Assembly (NCBI GenBank): GCA_964016885.1
Contig: OZ024758.1
Span: 12,090,001 to 12,154,000, forward strand
Origin: Eledone cirrhosa
Taxonomy: Eukaryota
Direction of reading: 5' to 3'
Length of the DNA stretch: 64,000 nt
Part shown: piece after piece, positions 37,706 to 38,044 of the stretch
Position numbering within the stretch: position 1 is the first letter of the stretch
Layout: every line of letters begins with the position of its first letter
Made by a program: the position numbers and the translations under genes
Notes under the pieces: model-generated
What the model was told of the DNA's origin: nothing
Seen by the model: only the letters and a program-made list of their open reading frames with translations
Database searches by the model: none

Positions 37706-37900
37706 ATATATATATATATATATATATATATATACATATACATATATATATATATATATATATATATATATACATACATATATATATATATATATATATA
37801 TATATATATATATATATATACATATATATATATATATATATATATAAATTTCCCGTTGGTTGGTTGGTTGGTTCCACAACCGGACGGTTGTTCATGTATT

Positions 37901-37943
37901 GTCAAAGTTCTTTCGTCACACATTCTGTGACCTCTTCAGTGAC
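37901..37943 (-). ncRNA. Minimal hammerhead ribozyme at the centre of palindrome 37843-37995
   Basis: GTCA CTGAAGA G GTCACA GAATG TGTGAC GAA AGAACT T TGAC; second copy at 61233-61275. Confidence 0.75.
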
Positions 37944-38044
37944 AATATATGAACAACCGTCCGGTTGTGGAACCAACCAACCGGAAATTTATAAATCCTT
38001 AAATTTATAAATTTTATTTATATATATATATATGTATATATAGC

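Follow-up and report, generated by a model that had tools for sequence, protein, structure and literature searches.

A lopsided palindrome in a (TA)n repeat of Eledone cirrhosa: a likely 5'-truncated Penelope-like insertion, perhaps joined from two cDNAs

The window (the whole stretch of 64,000 nt analysed here) is AT-rich animal DNA, with 19% simple repeats and about 20 copies of one SINE. At 37843..37995 it holds a short lopsided palindrome within a (TA)n repeat, which is built of the following parts, S being the site at which the short arms of a family recurrently end:

37705..37846: (TA)n target, left flank
37847..37904, minus strand: short arm, in element sense on this strand, ending at S and running unbroken into the ribozyme motif
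37901..37943, minus strand: minimal type I hammerhead motif of family A, with helix I GTCA/TGAC, a 6-bp helix II, GAAA and a CUU site
37940..37989, plus strand: the stretch of the long arm that mirrors the short arm, starting at the 3' strand of helix I, which is the predicted cleavage site
37990..38020, plus strand: tail of 31 nt confined to the long arm, its element sequence matching the sister copy at 61092

The two arms, 37847-37904 and 37940-37989, align over 50 positions with one mismatch and one gap (in a GGTT repeat) and are separated by a 35-nt spacer. Together with GTCA/TGAC the spacer forms a hammerhead-type motif on the minus strand whose helix I is prolonged by the arms, just as the initial annotation had described. 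The same annotation had the short arm ending at a microhomology with the flank, and this arm does abut (TA)n and terminate in TATA common to both. Its view of the inverted arm as a copy of the ribozyme-bearing strand could not be upheld: the arm continuous with the ribozyme is the short one, and the whole long arm (37940-38020) exceeds it by 31 nt. That the long arm begins at the cleavage site carries no separate weight, as every hinge in helix I would have it begin there. Four differences from the sister are common to both arms, indicating that one source RNA or locus gave rise to the two. The sister, and some 60,000 reads in each RAD run, show beyond helix I a native sequence that lacks complementarity to the focal arm, and the inverted arm is therefore not native. 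The focal palindrome is real.

The sister copy consists of two parts:

61092..61283, minus strand: family A sister with the whole hammerhead and a longer 3' part
61284..61293, plus strand: native upstream sequence, 10 nt in inverted orientation, at the 5' end of the sister, a non-overlapping inversion

This copy had been regarded as non-inverted, over 61233-61290, with different native sequence beyond GTCA. The difference stands, but the copy is not purely non-inverted, as 61284-61293 carries, in reverse complement, a 10-mer that the reads place about 4-5 nt further upstream. Family A reads depart from the reference at 61186-61187 into mixed flanks (read set X5: 2292 and 2492 reads, agreement 0.34-0.38), and 5 of 8 contig pieces among those listed for read set X2 start at 61182. 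One X2 joint among those listed, 61155/61268, has the build of a non-overlapping inversion, and 3 of the best 15 of 28 family A joints change strand. RAD reads bear weakly on hinges, since most of them carry native upstream sequence and so leave palindromes under-represented, and hairpins interrupt the contigs; X2 and X3 are moreover one sample, possibly the source of the assembly. Several family A joints lie at 61238, beside the predicted cleavage site, and one switches strand from the 3' end (61092). Families A (61092-61105) and E (7240-7265) have an 11-nt motif in common near a 3' end, whose sequence suggests a conserved RT start signal.

By motif, family A is a minimal type I hammerhead with putative self-cleavage. 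It has CUGAnGA, G10.1-C11.1, GAAA, UH and helices I and II, an assignment that rests on the motif descriptor in the excerpted text of PMC4209133 and not on Rfam, where no hammerhead family matched the focal motif at E<=10; among the best 150 of 335 Rfam matches to the window there were only sub-threshold, miRNA-like ones. The focal core, CUGAAGA, occupies 37939-37933 with an unpaired N9.1, and H17 is U here as against A in most RAD reads. CUGAnGA and GAAA are present in families A, D, E, G and H, where they lie within the terminal repeat and precede the 3' end. Only the 3' half of the hammerhead is seen in family B, the CUGAnGA half missing from all six copies (1548, 18236, 38063, 40703, 47256 and 47507), and in family C the core reads CAGAAGA, not CUGAnGA, in 3/3 copies (3002-3008, 22732-22738 and near 28200). 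The family C CAGAAGA sits inside a long helix-I-like arm and is either a variant or a dead ribozyme. MFE folds of several motifs gave no hammerhead shape, and those were assigned by motif. More hammerhead motifs are found in TA-flanked insertions at 53640 and 46057, both with an extended helix I, and at 61448 and 29958, with a variant near 3950/32350.

Twelve further insertions of the focal build, each referred to below by one position within it, bring the tailed palindromes in the window to 13. They are given here together with one family C copy of a different form:

1739..1874: family C palindrome with a 15-bp arm and no loop, placed outside the minimal core
2783..3068: family C copy, inverted tail 2783-2894, body ending at S; non-overlapping twin-priming form
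6734..7323: family E palindrome, arm of about 230 bp, hinge in loop II, ribozyme on the long arm
13804..13883: tailed palindrome, no ribozyme identified
13948..14270: family D palindrome whose short arm passes through the ribozyme and reaches about 68 nt beyond the core on the upstream side, and whose long arm begins in stem II
18234..18420: family B palindrome with a loop of 5 nt that belongs to the long arm
22674..22850: family C palindrome folded across the non-canonical core, with a loop of 1 nt
24615..24817: family G palindrome hinged at helix I/core by a loop of 1 nt, with 10 bp duplicated in its short arm
29878..30164: family H palindrome whose arm, of 15 bp, lies upstream of the ribozyme (29958)
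40703..40892: family B palindrome with a loop of 6 nt that likely belongs to the short arm (alignment with 18290)
42420..42660: tailed palindrome with a 51-nt spacer and no ribozyme assigned
47250..47451: family B palindrome whose arms meet without a loop
54975..55250: family D copy of opposite polarity, long arm reaching the same upstream end as in 13948..14270, 22-bp short arm

One arm adjoins (TA)n (0-3 nt) and the other carries a tail of 31-256 nt in 13 of 14 insertions, hand-picked in this one window from a masked BLAST self-comparison and by eye. Left out before counting were 27700 (no clear tail), 48134-48167, three TA-centred palindromes, SINE inverted pairs and, unscored for its 5-nt arm, the locus at 103-108, where the inverted part is 5 nt plus TATA. 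Exact arms of at least 15 bp fell into 13 bins, four of them TA-centred palindromes or SINE pairs, as against none in each of 30 shuffles, so that such palindromes occur beyond chance. The hinge differs between copies of one family, which supports the earlier proposal that the fold-over arose at insertion. The three palindromes centred on (TA)n (23352-23815, 14217-14338 and 58728-58847) have arms of about 205, 50 and 43 bp that are 98-100% alike; 14217-14338 repeats the family D tail end, and nothing else in the window matches the other two.

Elsewhere in the window, (TA)n-based arrays of 1.2-3.1 kb lie at 15085-18233, 28685-29878 and 62176-64000, the first two adjoining palindromic insertions, and tandem and inverted arrays of the 190-bp SINE at 48711-49820 and 27721-28113. 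A destabilase (i-type lysozyme) domain on the minus strand (27434-27691, E=2e-10) is probably a host exon. An RVT_1 fragment (39706-40432, E=6e-9) of a non-LTR element, which we take to be RTE-like, lies beside (TA)n, and two long frames without a Pfam match at 19048-20101 resemble a decayed DNA-transposon gene.

Judged by sequence, the copies are Penelope-like element (PLE) inverted pLTRs plus tail, a known structure in new families, and the focal palindrome is likely a 5'-truncated Penelope-like insertion. The inserted PLE origin given in the initial annotation is in keeping with the inverted tailed pLTR build, the hammerhead motif and the (TA)n target. The features of EN+ PLEs found here are an inverted 5'-truncated pLTR with a tail on one arm (13/14), a microsatellite or AT-rich target and frequent 5' truncation. 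None of the 126 window ORFs holds a PLE domain, the copies being ORF-less fragments, and the only RT match among those ORFs (39706-40116) is unlinked to them. A comparison of seven short window motifs with the excerpted supplement of PMC8557442 gave one match, in a context that looks unrelated. The canonical core argues against Naiad for family A, and families B and C may represent half-core types.

Ownership of the loop tells one-primer from two-primer models and can be read from a genome together with consensus sequences of the families. At 37843, 14112 and likely 40843 the loop comes from the native sequence of the short arm, and at 55230, 18290 and likely 6963 from that of the long arm, polarity at 40843 and 6963 depending on inferred native sequence; among the other seven palindromes, five show a tie or a 1-nt difference and two are left unassigned. 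In the first three the supposed copied arm is longer than its template, by 31 nt (37843), 99 nt (14112) and likely 80 nt (40843). No self-copy can be longer than the cDNA that serves as its template, and snap-back of a single cDNA therefore fails at 37843, as it does at 14112 and probably at 40843. The arm ends also recur. In family B the short-arm end is common to three palindromes and to simple copies 47500 and 1548, and in family C to two palindromes (1753 and 22733) and to copies 3068, 32280 and 24942, the body of 2783-3068 ending where the short arms of 1753 and 22733 end. Non-overlapping inversions are seen at 2783-3068, at 61284-61293 and in the X2 joint mentioned above. The claim that the arms overlap, unlike in L1 twin priming, thus holds at the focal locus, with its 50-bp overlap, but not at 2783-3068 or 61092-61295. 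Recurrent ends, non-overlapping inversions and PLE biochemistry (in the excerpts of PMC11167929) together indicate two target-primed cDNAs. Both would be antisense and so joinable only through self-complementary bases. The S sites carry TA/TAT, and any joining route could therefore end there. The family D copies of opposite polarity (55222-55250 and 14085-14125) stop at one site, some 68 nt upstream of the core, which may mark the 5' end of the RNA.

The trailing breakpoint falls inside the ribozyme footprint in 8 of 11 scorable copies; 13827 and 42520 were left unscored for ribozyme position, and footprints were set by hand, the upstream edge in family B being predicted. Between 2.2 and 5.7 such hinges are expected, depending on the assumed length distribution, one null having been set from the 128-bp median PLE insertion given in the excerpts of PMC9977147. 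The bias has p=0.09 under a null uniform to 100, 1e-4 when uniform to 260 and 0.013-0.022 for an exponential with a mean of 45-60; permuting the observed arm lengths among loci gives p=0.15, or 0.065 with family E removed. Most families have the ribozyme some 15-100 nt upstream of S, so that short insertions would land in it anyway. Simple copies have their 5' ends in or beside the motif at 1548, 47507, 24942, 28192, 32239 and 26820, and extend far past it at 53640, 46057 and 61448.

Hinges were originally said to coincide with ribozyme helices, which is supported as a tendency towards the footprint but not as to the pairing, since a helix is used in register only at 37843, where it is observed, and likely at 40843 (1-2 of 8). 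Among the hinges assigned to stem II, 40843 is likely correct, 18290 is a 3-nt match out of register, 47313 is a palindrome with zero loop, and 6963 and 14112 have one breakpoint in stem/loop II with its partner 63 and 102 nt off. Those at 22733 and 24687 are at the core, as stated, but the join is again a palindrome with a 0-1 nt loop and not a helix. The initial annotation had itself allowed that the bias is not absolute, and 1753, outside the minimal core, and 29895, upstream of the ribozyme, agree with this. Loops of at most 6 nt occur in 8/13 palindromes as against 72/1125 possible matches (p=3e-7), far shorter than chance, so fold-back or a shared stop point is likely involved. Loops of 0-1 nt gave no support as a sign of intermolecular annealing over fold-back (5/8 vs 31/72, p=0.22). 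A link between ribozyme and hinges is thus suggestive from this one window; a synthesis-stop bias at the ribozyme stands at about even odds, and priming on a ribozyme helix as a general rule is unlikely.

The explanation that we favour, with rather more confidence than doubt, is a two-primer PLE insertion in which the cDNAs are joined by a few self-complementary bases, at the focal locus those of helix I. The PLE endonuclease would cut both (TA)n strands, as another PLE does in vitro. One end would then prime at the inner site S and the other at an outer site L, both of which are visible as ends of the copies, and the interval between S and L would be the tail. Either cDNA may extend furthest, by strand displacement on one RNA or on the two RNAs of a dimer, and synthesis would often halt within the ribozyme structure or on reaching the 5' end of the RNA. 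Two antisense cDNAs would pair only where the element is self-complementary: their 3' ends could anneal directly, or one cDNA could fold back, copy itself to S and pair with the other. The two options are not separable per locus, and short loops favour fold-back or a shared stop. An L-primed cDNA stopping at S would give an ordinary non-overlapping twin-priming copy, which is the form observed at 2783-3068. Several points count against two primers. The short loops (8/13) would need both cDNAs to stop nearly together unless fold-back is allowed, a post-insertion deletion of 31 nt into the TA flank would mimic the focal polarity, the sample is small, hand-picked and from one window, and no PLE ORF is linked to the copies.

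A more specific and tentative proposal, which we consider doubtful, is that the inverted pLTR is a two-primer product in which the hammerhead, catalysis aside, sets the cDNA stops and supplies the pairing for joining. At 37843 the long cDNA would run off self-cleaved RNA at the cleavage site, and the leftover GTCA would pair with the helix-I complement of a cDNA made from uncleaved RNA. If true, the PLE ribozyme would help to close the 5' junction.

The origin first proposed for the palindrome was that one target-primed cDNA stalls at the ribozyme, self-primes on its helix and joins the other TA end. Short loops agree with this, as do 18290, 55230, 6963, 29895 and the polarity ties, the private variants common to both arms, and the snap-back junctions known for R2 proteins (PMC11371274, excerpts). 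Yet the tail is absent from the template at 37843, 14112 and probably 40843, the helix is seldom used in register, and recurrent S ends and non-overlapping copies are left unexplained, which makes this an improbable account as a whole; its snap-back step may survive inside the two-primer reaction. Were an antisense transcript to fold at its 3' end, self-prime and integrate as a hairpin from the tail end, truncated at S, the copied arm could be the long one while the short arm kept the loop. That explanation has been published for PLE junction palindromes (excerpts of PMC3846280), but it requires antisense RNAs with many different ends, leaves the opposite-polarity copy at 55230 and the non-overlapping copies unexplained, and differs from the sense RNA and DNA primer used by the PLE RT in vitro (PMC11167929, excerpts); we find it just as improbable.

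Host repair could produce a palindrome if a simple copy broke and its hairpin-capped end were copied and rejoined to (TA)n, or if later deletions trimmed an arm. (TA)n tracts are fragile, and three TA-centred palindromes lie in the window. Since the 13 lopsided palindromes occur only in TA-flanked insertions with family-specific ends, and host DNA is not duplicated, we regard this as quite unlikely. The concern that a library or assembly fold-back created the palindromes draws on the lack of a read across the focal junction among the best 15 of 28 joints and on 6/14 arm pairs without a mismatch. The other 8/14 pairs differ (at most 7 of 57, at 18290), ends recur by family, strand-changing family A joints appear in the reads of a second individual, and the build agrees with published PLE anatomy, so such an artefact is very unlikely. 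MITE-like DNA transposons with terminal inverted repeats at TA sites would share the inverted arms in a TA context, but one-sided tails, hinges that vary within a family, the lack of fixed symmetric terminal inverted repeats, hammerhead motifs and simple truncated sisters leave them scarcely credible.

Inverted PLE structures were already known, as had been noted at the outset, and the published systems, cited from excerpts throughout, allow the two-primer reading to be placed among them. Among the open-access papers searched, none was found that links the hammerhead with PLE inversion points or extends twin priming to PLEs. In the available excerpts, PMC4209133 gave no link of the hammerhead to inversion breakpoints, PMC11167929 did not address inverted junctions, the octopus repeat annotation PMC13282606 contained neither 'hammerhead' nor 'palindrom', and the preprint 10.64898/2026.07.22.740005 and PMC9977147 had nothing on junctions. 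Exact-pattern scans of metagenome contigs returned 0 loci. Copies such as these can pass for MITEs, miRNA hairpins or fold-back artefacts. Being very short, they bring the hinge and the two priming ends together in about 200 bp and so record the reaction at single-base resolution, and the in vitro PLE system (PMC11167929) makes the two-primer model testable now.

The focal motif has the features of minimal metazoan PLE hammerheads, namely a 4-bp helix I, a long helix II, an unpaired base before helix II and a vestigial helix III (PMC4209133, where dual motifs on opposite strands are also noted). Adineta Pen2a, Pen2 and Pen3a have inverted pLTRs with a tail on one arm and junction palindromes (PMC3846280). 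These EN+ PLE structures are head-to-head, as here, and the Pen2a tail of 31 bp compares with 31 nt at the focal locus; in its excerpts PMC3846280 explains the palindromes by self-priming on antisense RNA, without mention of the hammerhead. Naiad, Neptune and others also have inverted pLTRs with a tail, Naiads share the (TA)n target of the window copies and form inverted structures without canonical hammerheads, and the origin of tandem and inverted pLTRs and the role of the hammerhead are described as open questions (PMC8557442). Our copies differ from the Adineta and Naiad examples in that the whole insertion is pLTR-sized, many hinges are placed on the ribozyme and polarity can be given. 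R2 snap-back, in which the cDNA 3' end self-primes before joining (PMC11371274, PMC11331408), uses one primer and cannot yield a copied arm longer than its template, unlike 37843. L1 twin priming takes its second primer from the other break end, with internal priming and microhomology at the inversion (PMC11702581). This build is matched by 2783-3068 and 61092-61295, whereas in the 13 palindromes the cDNAs would overlap by 15-230 nt and the inner primer would sit at a recurrent family site. Closest to the two-primer reading is PAc Poseidon of Anolis, which in vitro cuts and extends both strands of an AT-rich target, is predicted to act as a dimer and dispenses with hammerhead cleavage for insertion (PMC11167929). 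Its two internal RNA start sites, downstream of the hammerhead, bound a tail, as S and L would in the window, where tails differ from it in ranging over 31-256 nt.
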